This document shows positions 4,748-33,376 of a stretch of DNA of 37,380 nt, one piece after another (the first letter of the stretch is position 1; each line of letters begins with the position of its first letter). The stretch lies in the IMG/VR virus record IMGVR_UViG_2718218398_000011; one strand, given 5' to 3'. The translations under genes were made by a program, and so were the position numbers. The notes below the pieces were generated by a model. It was not told the DNA's origin. It searched no databases and worked only from the letters and a program-made list of their open reading frames with translations. Source of the stretch: a virus. Its lineage: Duplodnaviria; Heunggongvirae; Uroviricota; Caudoviricetes.

Positions 4748-7700
4748 GCGTCGTATCCCCCCTGATCGCTGTAGTTACTCCTGGCTTTTGCCTTCAGCCT
4801 GCGTTCACGTTCATCAAGCTGGCGTGCCACCTCCCGCGCAATATCCTGCGCACTTTGTCCTGGCTGCGTCTGAATGATGATCTGCGTCGGTGCCTCAATC
4901 CGTTGAACGAGCGGCACAGTGGCTGCGCGACTCACAATTGCTTCTCCACCTTTCGCGGGAAGTGCCAAGGGGTGCAACGGTGGAAGCTCTGCTGGCGCGG
5001 CAGCAACGCCCATCATTCCGGCAACAACGGCAGCCAGTGCAGCTGTATTTCTCCGGCTGGTCACATTTGCCGGGCCGTTAACAATTTCCGGTCCGTTTTC
5101 ACCGACGATGCCAAACTGCCCGCGCGGGATATACCCGCCGCTGTCATACATCCCCGCAAAGCCATATCCCCATGATGGAAAACCACCCGATGGCATCATC
5201 ACTTTACCGTCTGCATTCACCGTCGCAGGTTGCTGACGCGTCACGCTTTCCGGCAGTTTTGCCTTTGCGGCCTCTTTACTGACAATGCCGAGCTTCTCCA
5301 GCAACCAGGAAACGCCGGATTTCAGGGAGTCCAGCGGATGCATGACCATATTCAGCCCTTCCGCCAGTGCCTCCCCGAATCGCCGCCCCATTGCCGCTGC
5401 GCTCTGCAGTTCGGCAGAGGTCGACTTAACGGGCGTCAGCAGATCAGTAAACCAGCCCCACAGCGCCTGCACTTTGTCGCCAATCCACTGGAACACGGGC
5501 TTAAGCGGTTCGAACGCTGCACTGATGGGACCTGCCGCCGCTTTGAATCCTTCCACCACGCCACCGAGAAATGCGGTGATGGGTTGCCAGTATTTCCAGA
5601 CAACCAGCGCCACGCCCGCCAGTGCAGTAACCACAAGACCTATCGGACTGAGCAGAGCACCTAACAGACCAGATATGGCATACAGGGCAACGCGCAGCAT
5701 CGCCAGTGGACCAGATGCCAGTACTCGCAGCACCGTGCCTGCGGCGGCCAGTCCACCGCGCAGTACCGCCAGAGGATTCATAAACATCACAGCAACAGCA
5801 CGTAAACCGGATAATCCAGACCGCAAAAGTGCAACTGGCGCACCTGCTACAGTTTTCAGGACATTTCCCGTCAGTGATGCCGTGCGGCGCAAAGACGACA
5901 ACGGCGCAGTAAGTAAACCTGCGGCGTTGCCCGATGAAGCAAGCCCGCGTCGCAGCAGTGCCAGTGGAGCGCCAGCCAACCAGGACAACGCGTTGCTGGT
6001 TCGAGTTACTGCTGCCATAACGGAAGGTAACGTTTTGATACCCAGCACAGAGAATCCCAGACGGATCACTGCCAGCGGCCCCAGCACTGCAGCCATCGCC
6101 ACCGCTAAGGTGCCTAGGCCGACGGTAACCGCAGCCACAACAGCCGATGCTTTCATCAGTGTGCCTGTCAGTTCCGGGTTAGCTTCCACCCAGCGACGCA
6201 ACGCCCCCGTGACGCTTTTCACCGTGTACAGAATATCCATCAGCGGCTGGCGCAGCGTTTCGCCCAGACTGCTGAAGGTGTTCTGCGCTCCGGTTTTGAC
6301 CAGCAACCACTGCGCAGAAAGTGAATCCTTGTTAATGTCGGATTCTTTCTGCATGGAGCCGAGCGCATCATTGCCCGCTGTCAGTTTTAACTGACGCTGC
6401 AGTTCCGGCAGGTTGTTTGCCAGTTTCGCCGCATCATCGCCAAACTCTTTACCAAACAACATAGTCATGGCAGACAGGCGCTTGTCCTGCGGCAGCGCGT
6501 TTACCTTCTCCAGCACGCGCTGGATGGTTCCCATCGCATCCTTCGTCATCTGCTTTTCAATCACTTCAGGATTGAGTTTCAGCAGATTCATCCCTTCAAA
6601 GAAACTCTTGCTTTGCATGGTGGCAATGGACAATTCACGCACCATCGCGTTTGCTGCACTGGCTGCAACCTCTGGCGCAGCGCCCAGTGTCAGGAAGGTG
6701 GAACCCAGCGCCGCCGCTTTACGATAATCCAGACGGTCAGCCACACCGCCCAGACGTTGCATCACATCAATGATGTCTGCCCCTTTCGACATGGCGTTAT
6801 CATCCAGATAGTTCAGCGCATCGCCGAGCTGTTCAATATTGCGGGTGGGGATTTTGTAGAGCTGGGCGATTTTCCCCAGACTTTCTGACAGTTCATCCGC
6901 TGGCAGCTCAAAGGCTGTTGCCGCCTTTGCTGCCGTACTGGCGAAGGCCAGCAGGTCACGTTTCTGATCTTCCCAACTGTCGTCAGGGTTTGCGACGTTC
7001 ATGCGCGCACCACCTTCAACCAGTGCAGCGAAATCCACCGCACCGTTTTCCATCGGCAACTGTTCGCTGGCAGCCTTGATGGCATCCTGCATTTCATAAA
7101 AACGTGCAGTGCGGTTGCCATTATCGTCACGCAGACCATTGACCTGCTTTGCCACACCTTTCATGGCATCTTCCATGCTGGTATAGCTTTTTACTGCCGC
7201 CATCACTGGTGCGCCCATTGCCAGCCCTGCAGCCGTGGTGGTGGCTCCGGCACCTGCAATACGATCACGCACCTCCAGCGAACGGGCATAACTGGCACGC
7301 GCTGCATTCATCCTGCGCTGAGCTTCCCCCAGTCGCTTCAGCCGCGCCTCCTGTTTCGAAAGTTCCTGGTTATAACGTGATGTTTCACGGGCTAAACGGG
7401 CAGTTGCTCCCGCATCGTCTTTCGCAGAAATTCCCGCCCGGTACAGTTCAGCACGCACAAGCGCCGTCTGCTGCTGCAGCTTTTTCTGGCGTTCTTCCAG
7501 GCGCTGAACAGCCAGCCGTTGACGGCCCAGAGCAACAACCTGACGTTGCGAAGGCGGCCCCATCGCTCCCAGTTCCTGACTGAGCAAATTTGCACGCTGG
7601 CGGGCATAGTTCAGCCTGTCGCCTAATTTCTGATTTTCTGCCTGCAGCTTTCGGAAGCTGTCCAGACTGCTCCCGGCCTGATCAAGCTGCTTTATTGCAT

Positions 7701-22128: not shown

Positions 22129-23895
22129 ATGAACACCACACTGACACCCGCAGATCTCGATCCCCGTCGGCAGGCCATGCTGCTGTACTTTCAGGGATAC
22201 CGCGTCGCCCGCATTGCTGAAATGCTGGGCGAGAAAGTTGCAACCGTTCACAGCTGGAAAAAACGCGACAAGTGGGGTGACTATGGGCCGCTGGATCAGA
22301 TGCAGCTCACCACCGCCGCACGCTACTGCCAGCTCATTATGAAGGAGCACAAAGAAGGGAAAGATTTCAAAGAGATTGACCTGCTGGCGCGCCAGTCTGA
22401 GCGCCACGCGCGGATCGGCAAGTTTAACAATGGCGGCAACGAAGCTGACTTAAACCCTAACGTCGCCAACCGCAACAAAGGCCCGCGCCGTCAGCCGGAA
22501 AAGAATGTCTTCACCGATGAACAGATTGAGAAGCTGGAAGAAATCTTCCATTCCTCCATGTTCAACTACCAGCGCCACTGGTGGGAAGCCGGAAAAACCA
22601 ACCGCATCCGCAACCTGCTGAAGTCACGCCAGATCGGCGCGACCTTTTACTTTGCCCGTGAAGCCCTGATTGACGCCCTGCTTACCGGACGTAACCAGAT
22701 TTTCCTTTCCGCCAGTAAGGCACAGGCCCACGTCTTTAAGCAGTACATCATCGACTTCGCCAAAGAAGTGGATGTGGAACTGAAAGGCGATCCGATGGTG
22801 CTTCCTAACGGGGCCACGCTTTACTTCCTCGGCACCAATGCCCGCACGGCCCAGAGTTATCACGGCAACCTGTATCTGGATGAATATTTCTGGATACCGA
22901 AATTTCAGGAGCTACGCAAAGTGGCTTCCGGTATGGCTATTCACAAGAAATGGCGGCAGACCTATTTTTCCACACCATCCAGCCTGACCCACAGTGCTTA
23001 TCCGTTCTGGTCCGGTGCGCTGTTCAACCGTGGACGCAACAAAGCCGACAAGGTGGACATTGATCTGTCCCACAGCAATCTGGCCCCCGGCCTGCTGTGC
23101 GCTGACGGGCAATACCGCCAGATAGTCACCGTGGAAGATGCGGTGCGCGGTGGCTGTAACCTGTTCGACCTTGACCAGTTGCGCATGGAATACAGCCCGG
23201 ACGAATACCAGAACCTGCTGATGTGCGAGTTTGTGGACGATCTCGCGTCCGTGTTCCCGCTCAGCGAACTACAGGCGTGCATGGTGGACAGCTGGGAAGT
23301 CTGGACCGACTTTCATGCACTGGCGCTGCGCCCGTTTGGCTGGCGCGAAGTGTGGATCGGTTATGACCCGGCAAAAGGTACGCAGAACGGCGACAGCGCC
23401 GGATGCGTGGTGGTGGCACCGCCAGCCGTGCCGGGCGGTAAGTTCCGCATTCTTGAGCGTCACCAGTGGCGCGGGATGGACTTCCGCGCCCAGGCTGACG
23501 CCATCAAAAAACTGACTGAACAGTACAACGTGACATACATCGGTATCGACTCAACCGGCGTCGGTCACGGGGTTTACGAGAACGTGAAAGCGTTTTTTCC
23601 TGCCGTCCGGGAGTTTGTCTACAACCCCAACGTTAAAAATGCCCTGGTACTCAAGGCCTACGACATTATCAGTCACCGCCGTCTGGAGTTTGACGCCGGA
23701 CACACCGACATAGCGCAGTCATTTATGGCAATCCGTCGCGCCACCACCGCCAGCGGCAACCGCCCGACCTATGAAGCCAGCCGCAGCGAAGAAGCCAGCC
23801 ATGCCGATCTGGCGTGGGCAACAATGCACGCACTGTTTAACGAACCGCTGCAGGGCGAGTCCGCCAATACCAGCAATATTGTGGAGATTTTTTGA
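22129..23895 (+). CDS. P: terminase ATPase (large) subunit P
   Basis: 588 aa, P2 gpP-like. Confidence 0.9.
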   Translation: MNTTLTPADLDPRRQAMLLYFQGYRVARIAEMLGEKVATVHSWKKRDKWGDYGPLDQMQLTTAARYCQLIMKEHKEGKDFKEIDLLARQSERHARIGKFNNGGNEADLNPNVANRNKGPRRQPEKNVFTDEQIEKLEEIFHSSMFNYQRHWWEAGKTNRIRNLLKSRQIGATFYFAREALIDALLTGRNQIFLSASKAQAHVFKQYIIDFAKEVDVELKGDPMVLPNGATLYFLGTNARTAQSYHGNLYLDEYFWIPKFQELRKVASGMAIHKKWRQTYFSTPSSLTHSAYPFWSGALFNRGRNKADKVDIDLSHSNLAPGLLCADGQYRQIVTVEDAVRGGCNLFDLDQLRMEYSPDEYQNLLMCEFVDDLASVFPLSELQACMVDSWEVWTDFHALALRPFGWREVWIGYDPAKGTQNGDSAGCVVVAPPAVPGGKFRILERHQWRGMDFRAQADAIKKLTEQYNVTYIGIDSTGVGHGVYENVKAFFPAVREFVYNPNVKNALVLKAYDIISHRRLEFDAGHTDIAQSFMAIRRATTASGNRPTYEASRSEEASHADLAWATMHALFNEPLQGESANTSNIVEIF

Positions 23896-24923
23896 TGGGA
23901 AAGAGTAAGAAGAACCGCGCTGTGTCGACGAACCAGATTCAGCACAAAAGCCAGACTTCAGCCGAAGCATTCAGCTTTGGCGATCCCGTTCCTGTTCTGG
24001 ACCGCCGCGAACTGCTGGACTATGTAGAATGCGTACAGACAGATCGCTGGTATGAGCCGCCAGTGAGTTTTGACGGACTGGCGCGAACCTTCCGCGCTGC
24101 CGTGCATCACAGTTCACCAATTGCGGTGAAATGCAACATTCTGACCAGTACCTACATCCCTCACCCGCTTCTCAGCCAGCAGGCTTTTTCACGTTTTGTG
24201 CAGGACTATCTGGTATTTGGTAACGCTTACCTGGAGAAACGCACGAACCGGTTCGGTGAAGTTATCGCCCTTGAGCCTGCTCTGGCAAAATACACCCGAC
24301 GTGGGTTAGACCTGGATACCTACTGGTTTGTGCAATACGGTATGACAACCCAGCCGTATCAGTTCACGAAAGGCAGCATTTTTCATCTGATGGAGCCGGA
24401 CATCAACCAGGAGATCTACGGCCTGCCCGGCTATCTTTCTGCCATTCCATCCGCCCTGCTCAACGAGTCCGCCACGCTGTTCCGCCGTAAGTATTACATC
24501 AACGGCAGCCATGCAGGCTTCATCATGTACATGACCGACGCCGCGCAGAATCAGGAGGATGTGAACAACCTCCGCAACGCGATGAAAAGTGCCAAAGGTC
24601 CAGGCAACTTCCGCAACCTGTTTATGTACTCGCCTAACGGCAAAAAAGACGGGCTTCAGATCATCCCATTGTCAGAAGTCGCGGCGAAGGATGAATTTCT
24701 TAACATCAAGAACGTAAGTCGGGATGACATGATGGCGGCGCATCGTGTGCCGCCGCAGATGATGGGGATAATGCCAAACAATGTTGGGGGGTTTGGGGAT
24801 ATAGAAAAAGCCAGTTGCGTTTTTGTGCGAAATGAGTTAACTCCTTTACAAAAAAGACTTGTAGAAATTAATATTTGGCTAAAGAAAAAAATAATAGCCT
24901 TCAAAGATTATTCATTGAATTAG
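23892..24923 (+). CDS. Q: portal protein Q
   Basis: 343 aa, P2 gpQ-like; the last ~30 codons are AT-rich. Confidence 0.9.
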   Translation: MMGKSKKNRAVSTNQIQHKSQTSAEAFSFGDPVPVLDRRELLDYVECVQTDRWYEPPVSFDGLARTFRAAVHHSSPIAVKCNILTSTYIPHPLLSQQAFSRFVQDYLVFGNAYLEKRTNRFGEVIALEPALAKYTRRGLDLDTYWFVQYGMTTQPYQFTKGSIFHLMEPDINQEIYGLPGYLSAIPSALLNESATLFRRKYYINGSHAGFIMYMTDAAQNQEDVNNLRNAMKSAKGPGNFRNLFMYSPNGKKDGLQIIPLSEVAAKDEFLNIKNVSRDDMMAAHRVPPQMMGIMPNNVGGFGDIEKASCVFVRNELTPLQKRLVEINIWLKKKIIAFKDYSLN

Positions 24924-24957: not shown

Positions 24958-26610
24958 TTACAAATACCGTCTAACACGTATTTTATTAATGCTCGACTCA
25001 TTTCCAATTCTTATCAAAGCATTTCTCGCTTTTTCTCCGATGCGTTTCATTCTTTCTGAACCATTGCTATACCCACCAAACTTAAGAGCAGTAGCTATTA
25101 TTGAATCACCACCATCAAGAATGACTTTTTTAAATAAATCATAGTAGTCATCCTCTGAGGCAGCATCCAATATTTCCTCGTGCCTATCAGACCAACCATT
25201 CTGACTTGATAATTTTATTAGAACATCCTTTATAGAACCATCCAGATTTAAAGTAGTAGAATAATCTTGGATTTTTGACTTTAACTCAGCATCTTTTATA
25301 GGATGAACATTCATGTAAATAGATTGAACATATTCCTTAAGAGCATCATTGCCGTAATTAATAAATTTACTTATTAATTCACTTGCTTTAATATTTTCAC
25401 CTAAATCTCTATACAGTCCGACAACACTATCCAAGTCACTTGGAGTTACATACTCTATCCCACCAACCACCGCTTGATATAGATTATCAATAACCTGATT
25501 TCGGTTATCTTCAAATGAATTATAGAAAAGCTTCCATGCTTCAAACAGTGAACCTCGCTTACTATCACGGATAAGTTCATCATTCCTTAGACTTACTTGC
25601 CTTTGGAAATTGTTCATATCAATATATCCATGCCTTACCATGTCTATAAGGACTTCATCAAGTTCGTTTGTTTTTTTATAATCATATATAAGCAAAGTAT
25701 TAAGCCATTTTTTTTCTTTTCCATCCTCTTTTTCATCACGCATATAGATATTTCTCATATTTCTAATATACTCCAATGATGGTACATCTCCATCTGGAGT
25801 AAATGCGTAATGACTCCAACAATACAAAGTTAAGGAGTGTGCGACTTCATTTGCAATTTTTTCAAAATTAACGTTAATGCCAGGTAACAAGGCTAGCAAA
25901 AACCGCTCTATTTTTTTCAGTATCCTAATATTCTTAATACCCAGGGAAATGGAGTATTTGCTTAATAATTTATGAACATCAGAATTATTTTTATATGCTA
26001 TAACTGCACATTCTTCTGGAGTAGGATTATAGGTAATCTCTCTATCAATAACCTTTTCTTTATAAGTGGAGTAGTCATCCATACCACTTGTCCCGTTATT
26101 AAGTAAAAGAACCACCTTACAATTTTTTTGTTCTTTCAATAAAGAAACCAACCCTAAGACATCTTTCACTTCTAAATTTTTACCACGTCTTTCTAAGTCA
26201 TCTATGACTACAATAACATTAGTAATTGACATAAATGACATTGACTCAAGTGTCGTAGTGAAATTTTTCAAAAAAGGTGTATCTTTTAACACACGAGCGG
26301 TCTTTCTAGTGCAGGATTCAAGAAGCCCCTTTGCATTTTGTGTTGCTGTTTTTAAATTAGGTTTGTTTCCAATGAAATCTTTCGTAATTGTATTTTCAAA
26401 GATGGAGTATTTTAATGCGTCCAATGAATTAACACCAAAAAGAGAGACGTAACTATATCTATTAAATGCAATCTTATTTTTATTTTCCTTTAAGAAAGCA
26501 TTCCAAGTATAGGTTTTCCCAATCCCCCACTCACCCTGAATAGCCATTACCTCAGGTTCTGCAGATGAAATAAAGTCTGACAACTGTTCTTTAATATAGT
26601 CTAATGACAT
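24958..26610 (-). CDS. KAP-family P-loop NTPase (cargo; candidate anti-phage protein)
   Basis: Walker A GEWGIGKT and Walker B VVIDDLERR in KAP-type arrangement; start placed at MSLDYIKEQL, which has GGAGA six nt upstream (track ORF starts at 26640); strongly AT-rich. Confidence 0.7.
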   Translation of the reverse strand: MSLDYIKEQLSDFISSAEPEVMAIQGEWGIGKTYTWNAFLKENKNKIAFNRYSYVSLFGVNSLDALKYSIFENTITKDFIGNKPNLKTATQNAKGLLESCTRKTARVLKDTPFLKNFTTTLESMSFMSITNVIVVIDDLERRGKNLEVKDVLGLVSLLKEQKNCKVVLLLNNGTSGMDDYSTYKEKVIDREITYNPTPEECAVIAYKNNSDVHKLLSKYSISLGIKNIRILKKIERFLLALLPGINVNFEKIANEVAHSLTLYCWSHYAFTPDGDVPSLEYIRNMRNIYMRDEKEDGKEKKWLNTLLIYDYKKTNELDEVLIDMVRHGYIDMNNFQRQVSLRNDELIRDSKRGSLFEAWKLFYNSFEDNRNQVIDNLYQAVVGGIEYVTPSDLDSVVGLYRDLGENIKASELISKFINYGNDALKEYVQSIYMNVHPIKDAELKSKIQDYSTTLNLDGSIKDVLIKLSSQNGWSDRHEEILDAASEDDYYDLFKKVILDGGDSIIATALKFGGYSNGSERMKRIGEKARNALIRIGNESSINKIRVRRYL

Positions 26611-26670
26611 GTACATTCTCCGAGATAGATAGTCATCCATATTATAACCCGAGTACTATCAAAGTAATAA

Positions 26671-26696: not shown

Positions 26697-27039
26697 TGCC
26701 CGCTTTATGTAGTGGTTTTCATGCACCTGCACGACATAAGCAAAAGCACGCCAGTTCTGGCTGGCCTCAGCAAAAACGATCCTCTAACGATCATGCGATC
26801 TCATGCGTCATAGTCATGCACAGCCAAGGGAAGCGTAAATCCGTATCTGAATGACCGCTGAAAAGCTAATCATACGGGTTTACAAAGATGAAAGTCCGCT
26901 GTGAGCGAAAAGCGGATATTCCCATTGTTTTATCTTGATCTAGTAAAAACAATACCCCCTTTACAAACAAAAATAATGAGTTACTATTTTCAGCTCCTTT
27001 TAACCCAAAGGTTTATAATTAAAAAGGAATGGCATACCG

Positions 27040-27693
27040 ATGAGTAAATACAAACTTTTCGCACAGCTATCAAGATATTCACTTGAAGCGCAGATTGATG
27101 ATTTCGAAAAATATATCCTAGGAGCAGGCGGCCAAAACAGAGTTGACTTAGCGGAATTAAAAAAAGCATATGAAGATGAAAAAAAGAATGCTCCTGACGA
27201 TTATATTAATTACTTAGAAGACTATTATTCAGAGCAATATGATTTCTTAGTTAACATACAACCAAATATTTTTAATAAATCTGCTTTGGTATCTTTATAC
27301 TCATGCTTAGAGCACAACCTAAACGACTATTGCAATATATGTCAAAGGATTGTAAACACCAATATATCAGTAACCGATTTTAATGGTGATGGCATCCACA
27401 AAGCAAAAAGATATTTAACAAAATTAATGGATATAAACTTTGGCCTGTCACAAGAGTGGCAATTCATGACAGAGTTTAACAAAGTAAGGAATTGCATAGT
27501 TCATGCTAATGGAGACATTAAAAAAATGAGCACAGCTGTAGCCTTAAAAAATATCATTGATAAAACACCTACTCTTTCATTAAACAATGAAAATAATATA
27601 ATAATCTCCTTAAATTATTTAAAAGATACTATCACAAAAATTAGAAAACTCTTTCAATGGTTATATACACATCTGGATCAATCATCGAAATGA
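27040..27693 (+). CDS. hypothetical protein with HEPN-like RNxxxH motif (cargo; candidate abortive-infection RNase)
   Basis: 217 aa; EFNKVRNCIVHANG at residues about 146-158 fits the Rx4-6H HEPN signature; AAGGAA ribosome-binding site; AT-rich. Confidence 0.5.
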   Translation: MSKYKLFAQLSRYSLEAQIDDFEKYILGAGGQNRVDLAELKKAYEDEKKNAPDDYINYLEDYYSEQYDFLVNIQPNIFNKSALVSLYSCLEHNLNDYCNICQRIVNTNISVTDFNGDGIHKAKRYLTKLMDINFGLSQEWQFMTEFNKVRNCIVHANGDIKKMSTAVALKNIIDKTPTLSLNNENNIIISLNYLKDTITKIRKLFQWLYTHLDQSSK

Positions 27694-27793
27694 ATACGAT
27701 AACATCTCAGTTTGTTATTGGTCTATTTTTGAAAACAGCTATCGATGATATTAGTCTGTTCTTCGTCAATTAATATGCAATCCATTCATGACA

Positions 27794-27815
27794 CAGGGCT
27801 GCTGTTACAGCCCTG
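27794..27815. terminator. hairpin between the convergent HEPN-like and Abi_C-like genes
   Basis: cagggctg-ctgtta-cagccctg, a perfect 8-bp stem. Confidence 0.35.
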
Positions 27816-27942
27816 ACAACCTTAGACTTCAATCGATTCAGAGATCTCTAACGCATCATCACCCGTTGAACTCACAGCGATAAGTAGACGCTGGCGGCAA
27901 CACAGAAGTGTAGCGGGAATTTGAACCACATAATTTGGTTTG

Positions 27943-28809
27943 TTAGATGGCTTTGCTTCGATATTCAATTTCTAAAATCGCCTTTGTCATTGCCGCAATA
28001 GTTATAGCTTCTACCATAGTCAATTCAGGCTTGTTCAAGCTTCCGTGTCCAGCAGTAGGTAATTTGTTGCGTAAATCATAAATATCTTTAACAGCATCAA
28101 TAAGATTCTTAGGTAATTTTGACATTTTTTCGAACTGTTTAAAAAAACCACCCAATGACTCATTTGCCACATTCGGGTTTTGAGTGATTTCCTTAGCCAT
28201 AGTTTCTAAAATATTAGAGGCTGCGTGCAGTGCACCTGCCGGATCATTATTATCCAAGCAATTATTCATTCTATCTATTTGCTGAACGATATTTGGGTGC
28301 AATCTTTTTAAGTAATCACTAGCCAATTCTTCATTAAAATTTTTGACACTTTCAAAAACATCGCAATCTAAATAAAATTTAGGATTGACTGACATCCATG
28401 TATATTTCCAATCATTTTCTAAATTATCTTTTTCCGCAATACGCCTGCCAGTGTCCTGATCTATCTCATCAACATATTTACACATATAATCGGCGTAGTA
28501 GTGTAAATATCTAAATGATATTTCTGGGCAAAAATTACTAACTGATGCAAGGCCGCCATATTCTTTTGTAGTAACTGTAGGGACTTCTTCATCACATAAA
28601 GATGAGAAAGTGGTTCTTTCCCAAAATTCGCCCAACTCTTTTTCTTTCCTAGTTGCCATACCAGCTATCACATTGATGCTTGAGAGCAAAACTACACTCT
28701 GATAGTATCGAGGACATCTGTATGAACTAGCATATGGGCATATTGATGATGCTTTACGATTAATACGCTCTTTTTCCCACCAATTTTTATCAGGAATAAT
28801 TCTTTGCAT
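27943..28809 (-). CDS. hypothetical protein with Abi_C-like C-terminal domain (cargo; candidate abortive-infection protein)
   Basis: 288 aa; the C-terminal ~100 aa (ALHAASNILETMAKEI ... DLRNKLPTAGHGS ... ITIAAMTKAILE) resemble the Abi_C/HEPN-type domain as I recall it; AT-rich. Confidence 0.45.
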   Translation of the reverse strand: MQRIIPDKNWWEKERINRKASSICPYASSYRCPRYYQSVVLLSSINVIAGMATRKEKELGEFWERTTFSSLCDEEVPTVTTKEYGGLASVSNFCPEISFRYLHYYADYMCKYVDEIDQDTGRRIAEKDNLENDWKYTWMSVNPKFYLDCDVFESVKNFNEELASDYLKRLHPNIVQQIDRMNNCLDNNDPAGALHAASNILETMAKEITQNPNVANESLGGFFKQFEKMSKLPKNLIDAVKDIYDLRNKLPTAGHGSLNKPELTMVEAITIAAMTKAILEIEYRSKAI

Positions 28810-29297
28810 AATTTAGCTACTATCTCACGAGTGAATGAATGTTTAGCCTTCTGCACAGTTTATCAGTTCCGGCATGCCTACTGCTACCCCACTGATTCAA
28901 CTTCAAGTTATGAGTTAAAGCGATTCGGTTTCGCTAGATGACACACTAGTGTTAATTTATGGATAAAAATTTATCACTTAAAATTAACTAATGCCTGTTG
29001 CGACCAAAAGTGTGCTGGAATATTATTTTCGTCTGACCTATTATCAAGCTAATTATCCAAATTAGAGTTACTCTCATTCATCAGCAACAAATAAATACAC
29101 CTGTTCACTTTCTCAAAGTGTTCCTGTTTTATTTTTAAAGCAAACAACGCCGCCTATTCGTCCGAATGTACAACAAACATCAGGTTCTGACACAAAGTGG
29201 ACGATCACTTATCAAAATGACCGCCCACCTTACACCTCATTTCACTCGTTGCCCAAACTCCCCCCAACAGGATAAATCCTCTTGGGGGCAACGTTTC

Positions 29298-29531
29298 TTA
29301 ATGCAGCCAGCTGTCGTCTTCCCACACCTTCTGCATAATTTTCATCACTTGTTTTCTTTCTTCATCCAGTTGCAGTCCGGTCAGTTCCACACCGTTAGAG
29401 CTACCTTTACGGATACGAATTACCGTTTTTGGATACAGGGGGCGCAGATTGCGGTAAAGCTCGGATTCAAGGGCGTCCAGGGTAGACTGGCTAATCTTCT
29501 GCTCTTTATCGATCATTATTTCAATGCGCAT
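29298..29531 (-). CDS. DinI-family protein (Tum C-terminal-like; SOS-induced)
   Basis: 77 aa from MRIEIMIDKEQ...; DinI-like throughout (RIEI..., ...VWEDDSWL). The track ORF starts at 29603 and overlaps the upstream gene. Confidence 0.8.
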   Translation of the reverse strand: MRIEIMIDKEQKISQSTLDALESELYRNLRPLYPKTVIRIRKGSSNGVELTGLQLDEERKQVMKIMQKVWEDDSWLH

Positions 29532-29541
29532 AAAAGTCACC

Positions 29542-29730
29542 TCAACTGATGACATCCATTGAGCGGTTGTATTCGTGGGTTCTGATCTTTGCCATGAGTT
29601 CATCAGTCAATTCAGAAACCCACTGCAGAGCCAGCCCCTTCTCTTCATCACTACACTCACTAGCCGCTACAAGCTTAAGAAAAAAATCAATGCGCTGGAG
29701 CTTCAAAGACTCCAAAAAATAGTCCTGCAT
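29542..29730 (-). CDS. small SOS-operon protein (possible Tum N-terminal-like antirepressor part)
   Basis: 62 aa from the ATG preceded by AGGAGG; first gene downstream of the LexA box. The track ORF starts at 29832, upstream of the box. Confidence 0.5.
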   Translation of the reverse strand: MQDYFLESLKLQRIDFFLKLVAASECSDEEKGLALQWVSELTDELMAKIRTHEYNRSMDVIS

Positions 29731-29773
29731 CTTTCCTCCTATGACACCACAAGCAATACTGTATGCATAACCA

Positions 29774-29789
29774 CTGTTTATATTTACAG
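29774..29789. promoter_or_regulatory. LexA (SOS) box
   Basis: CTGTTTATATTTACAG, a perfect CTGT-N8-ACAG with AT-rich spacer, overlapping a promoter-like region upstream of the small ORF and DinI-like gene. Confidence 0.75.
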
Positions 29790-29883
29790 TATATAATAAT
29801 CTTACTGATGTAAAACGTTTTTTTACGTTCATCAGCCTGATATGCCTGGTATTATTAAGAGCACGAATTGTTAATCCGCGTAA

Positions 29884-32298
29884 TTAATACAGGTTCCGCC
29901 ACTTATCATCTTCCCACAAACGCTGGTTCCGATAGAAGATACGCAAGCCTGCTCCTGACGGAATACTGCCGCCGCGAAGGAGTAAATCGACCTCTTTCTC
30001 GCTACCATCAAATCCTCTGGACTTCAGCTCATAGACGAGCTGCAGTCGCTGATGGTATGTAATTCGCTGTTTGTAGTCTTTACGCCGTTTCGGTTTAACC
30101 AGGCGTAACCTTGCTGCCAGGTCCCGGCGCTCTTTTTTGCTCATACTGTGCAGGTAATCGTGCAACTCCTTGTCATCCATGCGGGTAATGTCCGTTCTGG
30201 TATCCCCATCAGCTGATTTGTCTTTCCCTTGTTGGTACAAATTTTCAGCAAGGGGACAGTTATTGCCACGAGTCCAAGGGGCGCAAGCGCCCTGGTCGGC
30301 TGCCGCCTCCTGAACGTCAACGGCTTTACGGACCATTTTCCACTTCACTGCATGAGTGCAGATCTTGCCCTCTGCAATGGGTGACCAGATGCCATAAATA
30401 CGAATACCGTGATCGCCATAGGCGGTCGGCTCTTCGTTGATTTCATAAGCGGTTCTGATGAGGTGATATTTACGGGGAACCAGTACGCCGCCCTGCTTCA
30501 TGATGTAGGTGGCAAAGCAACCAGCATCAGCTGCAGCCAGAATGGCATCAAGGCGCGGGTTATCCAGTACCGGCGCACCTGCTTTTTTGTCACCCTGTTG
30601 CCTTGCCGCCTGACCAGCCAGCAATCGCAGTTCACGGTAAGCCTGACGCCCCGGAATGCCAAAGAAGCGGAATTGCTGAACACGATGCAGAGACGCCCAG
30701 GCATTAACGTATTCAGCGTTATCACGCAGAGATTTACCCGTTTCCTTGCTGATCTCGCCAGCCAGACCACGCCCGTCAATGTTCTTACTGATGTATTTCG
30801 CGATGTAGCTTGTTGGTGTACCTTTGCGCGGGTTTATCAGCTCAGACTTAAAGCGTGGTCCTGTGTTATTACCCAGCTCCTCGCGGTCTTCACGAATGGC
30901 AAACTTACGCAACAAAGCAGTAATGGCGCGGCGATCTTTTTTGCGCATAAAACACAACAGGTGCCAGTGAACTGTACCGTCATGATGCGGCTCAGCCACC
31001 CGCACGCCATACCAGCGCAATCCGGCTTTGTACATCGCCTTACGAAATGCAGCAAACATGCCGACCAGATAATCACTGCTTTGTCTTACCGTCGCATTTG
31101 TCCAGGTCGGGTTGGGCCTGCCGTTATTTAGCGTGGAATGGAAACGTGACGGACAGGTGATGGTGTAGAAAACGGCGCAGTCACCGCGCATTTCCGCGAT
31201 AAGCTCCAGACCTTTAACACATGCCATCATCTCATTGCGGCGATGCGCCGGGTTGCTACTACTGGCGTTTACCACGTCCTCCATATCCAGCGTGTCGCCG
31301 TCTTCGTTCACCAGTTCATGAGAACGGAAAAACTCCAGCGACTTACGGCGCTGCTCACGTTTATGCATCACGGCTTCATAGCTGACATAGGGAGATGCTT
31401 TTTTGCTGACCAGGCAAACAGCACGCAACTGCTCTTCCCGCCATTCGCAACGCATCTTCCATAATTTCCGATACCACCAGTCGGCGCACAACATACGCGC
31501 CAGCGAACCCGGAATGAGTTCATAGGGTACGGGTTTACGGCGGTTTCTTTTCCGGCGGAGTTGCTCAAACGCAGGAGGGATGACATCCAGACGCAGGGTT
31601 TCCGCCGCCACCCTTTCCCATGTCTTGCGGATTTCTTCTGGCTTAACGTCATCGGTGGCATACAAATCACCACAAGCTGCATCAAGGCACATGCTCATAT
31701 GTGCGGCAACAAGGGTAGACAGGCGCTTCACCTGATCCTGACTCATTTCAGGCAAGATCAGCAGGCCGTCCAGCCCTTCATGGCTTGCCATAAAACGAAA
31801 AGATGCAGATAGCTGGCTGTCGCGTACATGCTCTAGTCGTTCCAGACATGGTTTAATCGTCTCACGCAAATAGCGGGAATAAGCCTTTGGCCTGCCCAGG
31901 CTGCTGAAGTATTCAATACGTTGCATCAGCGGCTTGCTGATATGGGAAGGCTGGGCGTTAACGTCCGCCAGTATGACCATGTCCGGATTAAAACGCTGCT
32001 GCTCATGCACCAGCTTTGCCCGGCTAATGAGCTTATCCTGCTCCATTTCGCGCTGGACAGGATCACGGGATTCATTAAAGAAATAACGCTCCCAGACCTG
32101 ATCACTCAGTGCCTCGCGGCGCAGTTGTTCCTGCTTGTTATCGGCAGCGTACAGAGTGATCAGGTTTGAAAGCGCAGAAACCGGCGCAACTTCCGCCGGG
32201 TCCAGATAAGGGTTAATCGCCTTTTTCGGGCTGTTCCATGAGAATGCTGCGGCGGCCTCGTTAAAGCCGCTGCAGTTGTTCATATCAGCATGTCTCAT
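29884..32298 (-). CDS. A: replication initiation protein A (rolling-circle HUH endonuclease)
   Basis: 804 aa; HUH motif [11 protein letters not shown] and catalytic-Tyr motif [12 protein letters not shown], as in P2 gpA. Confidence 0.9.
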
Positions 32299-33152
32299 GC
32301 ACGTACTCCGTACACGGCAGAACTATCCACGCCACGCGAAGGATCAAATCCCACCCAGCAGCGCGCCCCAGAAACAGCGATGATTTCTGTTGCAGATTTA
32401 CTCTCACCAGCTGCTACGCCGATGCTGCGTTTTGCCTTGATGTAGTGGTGAGTAAAATTGCGATACAGCGAACGGATCAGGGATGTGTCACTGTTAGAAA
32501 CAATGACCGGATGTCCTTCTGATGACCGATGTTCAAGAACGGATGCCAGGTGATACTGGTCATCTTCAGTGAAACCATCAGTGTGATAGCTGGAAAACGT
32601 ACCGTCATACGGCGGATCGCAATACACCACATCCCCCGCCTTCAACATCGCCAGCGTTTCATCAAAGCTGGCGCAGATAAACGTTGCTCGTTGGGCTTTC
32701 TCTGCAAATGCGCAAATTTCTTTTTCAGGGAAATACGGATTTTTATAATTACCGTAGGGAATGTTGAAATGCCCGCTCTTGTTATAGCGACATAACCCAC
32801 GGTAACCGTGACGATTGAGATACAGGAAATATACCGCTTTCATGAAATCAGTAATTTCAGTTGAGTAATTAAACTCCTGCCTTATGTTGTAATAAGCCAC
32901 CTCCCTGTTTGCTTCCTTAAATAAAACTCTGGCGCGAGATATAAACGATTCACAATCAGCGGCAACCTTTTTATAGAGGTTGATTAAATCAGGATTAATA
33001 TCCGCAACCAGATAGCTGGGATAATCCGTCTCCATCATCACAGCACAGGAACCCGCGAAAGGTTCAACCAGTCGCGGGCCAGCTGGAAGATGTTTTTTCA
33101 GTTCTGACATTACGGCGGTTTTATTTCCCGCCCATTTCAGGATGGTGCTCAT
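32295..33152 (-). CDS. dam: DNA adenine methyltransferase (Dam-like, D12 class)
   Basis: PFAGSCAV (FxGxG-type) and DPPY motifs; start placed at [11 protein letters not shown], overlapping the upstream stop by ATGA (track ORF starts at 33212). Confidence 0.85.
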
Positions 33153-33376
33153 ACAGCACCTCCGTTGTAATGTTTGCCTTTCAGCTCTGCGATTTCCTGA
33201 CAGGTAATGCAAAGCTGCACACCTAGAATGGCGCGGCGGCGTGCTGGCGGAATTGGCGCTTCACACTCAATGCAAAGCACGCGGGACACGCCCGGCGTTT
33301 TGGCACGGGCAGCACGGATATGGCGCTGGCGTTCTTCTTCAACGCGCTGCTGTACGAGATCCATTGCATCAGCCAT
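33149..33376 (-). CDS. TraR/DksA-family C4 zinc-finger protein
   Basis: 75 aa; CIEC...CITC zinc finger; positional equivalent of P2 orf82. Confidence 0.8.
   Translation of the reverse strand: MADAMDLVQQRVEEERQRHIRAARAKTPGVSRVLCIECEAPIPPARRRAILGVQLCITCQEIAELKGKHYNGGAV

Follow-up and report, generated by a model that had tools for sequence, protein, structure and literature searches.

The locus and its source

The DNA analysed here, which we call the window, is a single stretch of 37,380 nucleotides from a tailed-phage record (IMGVR_UViG_2718218398_000011), and the gene under study lies on its plus strand at 27040-27693. That this 217-amino-acid open reading frame is a real gene, as an earlier note made from the sequence alone had taken it to be, is borne out by an identical NCBI annotation (WP_000049685.1, ‘hypothetical protein’), by the aligned N-termini of its homologues, which support the start codon, and by clear purifying selection (dN/dS of 0.07-0.23 over ten pairwise comparisons involving four diverged homologues). 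A literature search found no paper that mentions WP_000049685.1; current defence finders call no defence system for the gene, and PADLOC (2023) would call none here.

The 5 kb around the gene match, at 100% identity, a P2-like prophage on the chromosome of an E. coli O25b:H4 strain (NZ_CP015085.1); a further match is to a circular record of this phage, 29.5 kb long, that comes from the same strain. The NCBI gene order runs from terminase and portal through a ‘P-loop NTPase fold protein’, three hypotheticals, a DinI-like protein and a small hypothetical to the replication endonuclease. It is notable in its own right that one assembly contains this P2-like phage twice, once integrated and once as a circular record of its own. 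In the circular record (NZ_CP015088.1; ~6230-6235 of our locus L021), expansion of a T5 run to T6, the counterpart of 27269-27273 in the window, shifts the reading frame of the gene at codon 78; either the homopolymer was misassembled, or the change is real and might be inactivating or phase-variable. A 19-nt sequence taken for P2 cos (GGCGAGGCGGGGAAAGCAC) is not found anywhere in the window when up to three mismatches are allowed, such that either the cos of this phage differs or the query sequence is imperfect.

The gene sits between portal gene Q (23892-24923) and replication gene A (29884-32298), that is, within the gpQ-gpA locus defined as an anti-phage hotspot of P2 and occupied in P2 itself by old and tin (Rousset et al. 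2022). WP_000049685 is present in Table S5A of that study, within hotspot arrangements and as ‘hypothetical’ only, and the P2 systems tested there did not include it. Around a quarter of P2 hotspot cargo is non-defence, for example partition systems and toxins; a 2026 follow-up on P2/P4 hotspots predicted 15-32% of the unknown P2 hotspot proteins to be antiviral. Towards gpA, the hotspot has a constant right border, made up of a DinI-like gene (Pfam 1.3e-22) and a small conserved ORF (29301-29832, minus strand), and a DNA adenine methylase gene follows gpA (32295-33212, minus strand).

Three independent modules

Comparison of hotspot variants resolves the cargo into three independent modules, which carry a KAP NTPase, the 217-aa protein and a 288-aa protein, respectively. 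The first extends to ~26916, where homology to another hotspot variant (L003) ends, and its KAP-family P-loop NTPase gene (24958-26640, minus strand; GC 0.33) matches Pfam KAP_NTPase at 1.3e-8 and PADLOC PDC-S49 at 2.2e-25. The second, at 26894-27773 on the plus strand, has a GC content of 0.31 and is 83% identical to its counterpart in an Enterobacter prophage, where its neighbours are different; of its 880 bp, 146 nt precede the coding region and include the upstream signals, and 80 nt follow it as a short 3' flank. The third (27710-29195; GC 0.37) begins at 27710, as judged by 95.5% identity to phages of another type, which do not carry the 217-aa gene, and encodes a convergent AbiJ-like protein (27943-28809, minus strand) with a Cys-rich N-domain and a C-terminal Abi_C/HEPN domain containing R247...H255. 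At 30-31%, the GC content of the 217-aa gene and its module stands well apart from the ~50% of the phage backbone.

The KAP module occurs in other strains with neither of the two HEPN genes, and PDC-S49 is itself a PADLOC candidate single-gene system; a single-gene KAP system, ‘Reve’, has recently been validated in P4 satellites (PMC13586616). In one hotspot variant (L002, 2828-3940) the KAP module is replaced by an LPO_1073/Vpar_1526-family protein plus a small ORF, and in another (L003, 4179-4514) a 111-aa hypothetical protein with no Pfam match (WP_001059831.1) takes the place of both HEPN genes; these variants show how modules are shuffled at two sub-sites within one hotspot.

The border between the KAP and 217-aa modules is marked by a hairpin, TCCGCT-N10-AGCGGA (26895-26916; core ~26892-26918), whose consensus, (A)AGG-TCYGCT-RTGAGCGARMA-RCGGA-C, sits exactly on the junction. 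The same element is found in the Enterobacter prophage (L008, 5864-5882), in a viral contig carrying a homologue (L020, 4879-4897) and at L038 (5053-5071), as well as in 67 viral contigs (L039-L105) with unrelated flanks on both sides, and it recurs at many phage cassette borders. It is intergenic in 41 of 49 instances, with lower GC downstream in 24 cases against 7, and in a subset another copy of AGCGGAC, located ~20 nt upstream, could allow alternative pairing. The ORFs that begin at the RTG of the element are short and stop at scattered positions, so that it does not serve as a translation start. Neither an Rfam search nor a literature search for the sequence gave anything relevant. The element may mark cassette boundaries, serve in recombination or act as an insulator hairpin.

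Expression signals

The ribosome-binding site proposed in the earlier note holds up well: a Shine-Dalgarno-like AAGGA (27024-27028, plus strand) lies 11 nt before the ATG, and is kept as AAAAAGGAAT in the Enterobacter and Morganella copies. The -10 element, also proposed there, needs to be moved. A perfect TATAAT does exist at 27014-27019, but homologues do not share it, and transcription from it would begin within the Shine-Dalgarno sequence; the -10-like hexamer that is conserved, across five unrelated insertion contexts, is TACTAT (26982-26987). Together with TTTACA (26960-26965), 16 nt further upstream, it makes up a putative promoter-like site (26960-26987, plus strand), identified by a consensus scan and alignment. 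Such sites are not commoner in the region than expected by chance (13 found against 10.7).

With respect to the 3' end, the same note had the gene terminated by a perfect 8-bp hairpin shared with the convergent gene. The GC-rich hairpin is real (27794-27815; CAGGGCTG, a 6-nt loop and CAGCCCTG) and modestly non-random, being seen in 2.6% of shuffles, but it has no T-tract on either strand, was not flagged by a terminator scan, and belongs to the 288-aa module (27710-29195). Because the DNA that moves with the 217-aa gene (26894-27773) ends short of the hairpin, the latter is not demonstrably that gene's terminator. A weak AT-rich hairpin followed by T5, immediately past the stop codon (27697-27732), was considered as the gene's own terminator, and rejected as neither significant (z = -0.85) nor conserved.

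The predicted active site and its conservation

As the earlier note had pointed out, the protein contains an RNxxxH motif, EFNKVRNCIVHANG (residues 145-158; 27472-27513, plus strand), in which RNCIVH corresponds to residues 150-155; the numbering of R150 (codon 27487-27489) and H155 (codon 27502-27504) is correct, and this is the sole Rx4-6H in the protein. Its occurrence as such is not beyond chance: in shuffles of the protein some Rx4-6H appears in 27.7% of cases, and RNxxxH in 1.1%. The motif is meaningful because it is conserved, not because of its mere occurrence. R150, N151 and H155 are invariant in an alignment of 13 homologues, and in a wider alignment of 91 distant relatives (20-35% identical to the query) R150 and H155 are the only invariant columns, with N151 at 99% and a glutamate, E91 (codon 27310-27312, plus strand), at 98%. 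Conservation in homologues was the check that the note itself had named, and both residues come through it in close and distant relatives alike. Conservation is concentrated in residues ~75-160, with variable regions on either side, namely the first ~70 residues and the C-terminal third.

The HEPN active site, as described by Anantharaman 2013, consists of an Rx4-6H motif with a polar residue (N, D or H) directly after the arginine, and a conserved acidic residue near the motif, in helix 2. All three elements are found here, as the conserved R150-H155 pair, the polar N151 and the acidic E91, the last of which lies in a long helix (53-105) equivalent to helix 2 and is predicted to complete the active site. 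The protein lacks the fuller Ex3[KR] form (E91-x3-N95).

A large family at the edge of HEPN_RiboL-PSP

A word-indexed homology search returned 32 relatives, nearly all from Enterobacterales, plus a Bacillus protein at 24% identity, and all of them keep R150, N151 and H155; a search of the same kind with a family profile added few more. An exhaustive profile search returned 3,996 representative clusters at E <= 0.001, with 1,724 of them at E <= 1e-10. Most relatives are 200-235 aa long and match end-to-end, and the family spans Proteobacteria, Firmicutes, Cyanobacteria, Planctomycetes and other groups.

The window protein has no meaningful match in Pfam or NCBIfam, and none to Pfam HEPN_RiboL-PSP (PF18735) at E <= 1, although the UniRef label for the exact sequence is ‘RiboL-PSP-HEPN domain-containing’. 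The same Pfam model does match 14 of the 91 relatives (E <= 0.01; best 3e-7), and the consensus of the family core scores 28.8 bits (E = 1.4e-6) against a gathering threshold of 28.4 bits, which the window protein itself does not reach. From these sequence comparisons we conclude that the protein belongs to a divergent peripheral or sister clade at the edge of PF18735, and is not a scoring member. A further profile, PADLOC RTasHEPN (PDLC03820), aligns to residues 122-164 at E = 1.1e-5, a stretch of ~43 residues that includes the motif, and matches 70 of the 91 relatives (best 1e-10).

An AlphaFold2 model of the protein (pLDDT 88.3, pTM 0.81) is helical except for a small beta-hairpin. Canonical HEPN domains (Anantharaman 2013) are built on a four-helix up-down core, in which helix 2 bears an acidic residue, an insert separates helix 2 from helix 3, and helix 3 ends in the motif. 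The predicted model has this topology: helix 53-105 carries E91, residues 119-130 form a helical insert, and helix 138-156 ends in R150-H155. A Foldseek search of the model against the PDB returned nothing significant, nor did sequence searches of the PDB with two profiles give a significant match to any solved structure, and we regard the fold evidence, which comes from a predicted structure, as moderate. A generic helical bundle with a chance Rx4H motif would account for the protein without any HEPN relationship, but this we consider very improbable. The combined evidence for HEPN membership is strong, and the protein very probably belongs to the superfamily.

Solo gene or partner of the 288-aa gene

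The convergent 288-aa gene raises the question of whether the two proteins form one system, in which, for example, either protein senses for or regulates the other, or the two make up a hetero-oligomeric HEPN nuclease. Both proteins carry HEPN-like domains. The 217-aa gene is rare in complete E. coli genomes (9 of 5,426), and in all ten records from these nine genomes the 288-aa gene adjoins it, with the pair moving as a unit beside different neighbours. Saying this, the E. coli copies are at least 99% identical at the DNA level, and the pairing therefore counts as one evolutionary event. Moreover, the two genes are convergent rather than arranged as an operon, and lie in modules with separate borders.

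Homologues of 63-81% identity occur without any 288-aa relative within 6 kb at four different loci: in a Morganella P2-like prophage between the sheath and tail-fibre-assembly genes, in a viral contig (L020) between gpV and gpS, in a Pantoea ICE (conjugative element), and in an Enterobacter prophage. Three different P2-like moron sites are thus occupied, as would be expected of a self-sufficient single-gene cassette. The converse is also seen, with the 288-aa gene intact in the NCTC9064 defence island in the absence of the 217-aa gene, and interrupted in other phages. Obligate pairing can hence be rejected for the wider family.

Amongst distant relatives, which lie in defence islands and on plasmids, the neighbours include Gabija, HNH, GmrSD and DUF1016 nuclease genes, a RES toxin pair on a small plasmid, and an SMC/Schlafen/methylase island, with no neighbour in common; across ~16 sampled family contexts we found no conserved partner gene. 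Some neighbours recur without being universal, namely Abi_C genes in 3 of the ~16 lineages and HNH/ParB-like nucleases in 4. In the B. cereus group a family member lies 44 bp from a true Abi_C gene in the same direction, and in Priestia an Abi_C protein is encoded two genes away, both of which speak for a partnership with AbiJ-type proteins. However, the Bacillus neighbour resembles the 288-aa protein in the Abi_C region only, the N-domains being unrelated (hhalign probability 18%), and Abi_C genes are common residents of defence islands. Taking these points together, we think a two-gene system at this locus unlikely. Slimmer still is the prospect of a recurrent two-HEPN partnership between this family and AbiJ-type (Abi_C) proteins, spanning E. 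coli P2, B. cereus-group islands and Priestia; were it true, one HEPN might sense for or license the other, or the two might form hetero-oligomeric nucleases, an architecture so far undescribed among defence systems, of which the solo copies would represent degenerate or self-sufficient variants.

The interrupted form of the 288-aa gene merits a separate comment. In non-P2 phage loci (L025, L026 and L029; 6001-6867), a version 96.5% identical carries an in-frame stop that splits it into ORFs of 114 and 150 aa, and in eight complete E. coli genomes (H51-H58) two hypothetical proteins are annotated under a match of ~97% DNA identity. This looks like a pseudogenised copy that has spread, beside a P-loop (zeta-toxin-like) gene.

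A model for the solo gene, and its alternatives

Synthesising these findings, the best explanation for the 217-aa protein is a free-standing member of the HEPN superfamily, from a divergent family at the fringe of HEPN_RiboL-PSP that is related to the PADLOC RT-associated HEPNs. Its gene is best explained as a self-contained, horizontally acquired moron, consisting of promoter-like site, Shine-Dalgarno sequence and coding region, in the gpQ-gpA hotspot of a P2-like E. coli prophage. The earlier note had gone further, in proposing a candidate abortive-infection RNase, and motif conservation, profile matches and hotspot context all lend support to this idea; from them we infer, rather than observe, RNase activity, oligomerisation, trigger, target and anti-phage phenotype.

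We propose a speculative model by analogy, not homology, with HepS, the solo HEPN protein discussed below. In the lysogen, the protein would be expressed constitutively in an autoinhibited form, until a phage-derived cue lifts the autoinhibition; the poorly conserved N-terminal ~70 residues and C-terminal third are candidate sensor or regulatory surfaces. Two HEPN domains would then pair, such that R150, N151 and H155, along with E91, of each protomer create a composite endoribonuclease site that works without metal. By cutting RNA of the host, the phage or both, be it in tRNA anticodon loops, mRNA or rRNA, the protein would stop translation and abort the infection. On balance we lean towards this full model of a solo, autoinhibited HEPN abortive-infection RNase, and give it a slightly better than even chance of being right as a whole.

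One alternative keeps the HEPN fold and gives up the RNase effector: the protein might be an inactive dimerisation or ligand-binding module, or a counter-defence or regulatory factor that benefits the phage. There are precedents, as the HEPN domain of AbiA is enzymatically inactive and mediates dimerisation, and many HEPN domains are substrate-binding modules (Anantharaman 2013); the sizeable non-defence share of P2 hotspot cargo also leaves room for such a role. But inactive HEPN domains typically lose the arginine or the histidine, whereas here R, N, H and the helix-2 glutamate hardly vary over thousands of relatives, a pattern that points to a catalytic site being maintained, and the family's contexts are overwhelmingly defence islands. 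To this reading we accord little credence.

Alternatively, the protein could be the toxin of a toxin-antitoxin (addiction) pair, with an unrecognised small-protein or RNA antitoxin and a role in stabilising the prophage or mobile element rather than in defence. The contexts sampled offer no candidate, since neither an MNT gene nor any other conserved neighbour appears in the ~16 of them, and the module leaves just its 146 nt upstream and 80 nt downstream in which an antitoxin could be encoded. No tandem repeats were detected by TRF between 26600 and 27950, no meaningful direct repeats upstream of the gene in four lineages, and no Rfam match between 24900 and 29900 at E <= 1. We judge an addiction role to be improbable. 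Two specific versions were considered and rejected: a 47-codon upstream ORF, running from the junction element to over the ATG, as a hidden antitoxin, the frame of which is not conserved in Enterobacter; and a type III (AbiF/ToxIN-like) system, for which upstream tandem direct repeats were looked for and none found.

Comparison with known systems

The precedent for the preferred model of a solo RNase is HepS (‘HEPN Solo’; PDB 9oik), a single-HEPN abortive-infection protein of ~218 aa encoded, without a partner, by the Gifsy-1 prophage of Salmonella. At rest HepS is an inactive tetramer; a tail-tip protein of the phage switches it on, and it then cleaves tRNAs in the anticodon loop. Its gene can be cloned and expressed without toxicity in the absence of flanking DNA (PMC13043305). 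The two proteins share no detectable sequence relationship: 9oik is absent from our PDB profile searches even at E <= 10, and no homology to the HepS family (STM14_3211 / 9oik) was detected. They also differ in the position of the motif (R100-H105 in HepS, R150-H155 here) and in the type of phage that carries them, a lambdoid siphovirus for HepS and a P2-like myovirus for the 217-aa gene.

Solo prophage HEPN systems, in which one small protein both senses and kills, have been demonstrated only recently (HepS, Nature 2026; PMC13043305). The 217-aa gene would represent a second family with this solo layout, unrelated to HepS in sequence and much larger (~4,000 representative clusters), and it occupies the P2-phage defence hotspot that has been studied most. 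It is of a kind already known, HEPN abortive-infection effectors and now solo prophage HEPNs, and as such is not a surprise, nor would it alter the field's view of HEPN effectors. Should it prove active, the defence catalogue would gain a widespread single-gene system, and the field a compact model for how a HEPN RNase is silenced and then triggered. A small 880-bp module with defined borders makes an easy and inexpensive experimental target.

The MNT-HEPN toxins of types II/VII (SO_3166, PDB 5yep; 8xdj; 7ae2) are ~130 aa long and are encoded adjacent to an AMPylating MNT antitoxin. The 217-aa protein differs in its size, its long N- and C-terminal extensions and its lack of sequence similarity to them, and no nucleotidyltransferase gene accompanies it in any context; its neighbours in the window are the KAP NTPase and the AbiJ-like protein.

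RTasHEPN is the best match for the protein in defence databases, and that match includes the motif region. The model stands for HEPN proteins that accompany defence reverse transcriptases, and we tentatively equate it with the HEPN partner in the UG22-associated cluster (PMC9226505). Unlike in RTasHEPN systems, however, there is no reverse transcriptase in the hotspot or in any of the ~16 sampled contexts, and hence no UG/Abi reverse transcriptase beside the HEPN gene as in DRT-type systems.

AbiJ/Abi_C proteins (PF14355) resemble the neighbouring 288-aa protein, which likewise combines a variable N-domain with a C-terminal AbiJ-type HEPN, and whose gene is, like the 217-aa gene, a single-gene Abi-type candidate. 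The 217-aa protein itself has no Abi_C signal, and its motif is Rx4H, as opposed to the R-x7-H of the 288-aa protein.

PF18735 remains the closest curated family, with a conserved Rx4H in common. The 217-aa protein is not fused to an L-PSP endoribonuclease domain and has no ParB neighbour. An ‘operon with ParB’ has been noted for Ribo L-PSP-HEPN proteins (Anantharaman et al. 2013), which is echoed by one relative of the 217-aa protein that adjoins a ParB-like GmrSD_N/HNH gene. Our literature search found no experimentally characterised member of PF18735, and ‘RiboL-PSP’ combined with phage gave nothing relevant. In a Planctomycetes MAG (L012, 3269-4069), a family member lies next to a GmrSD_N+HNH gene, and the longest ORF that contains it extends ~57 residues upstream, with CxxC...CxxC motifs; if translated, this N-terminal extension is possibly a zinc ribbon.
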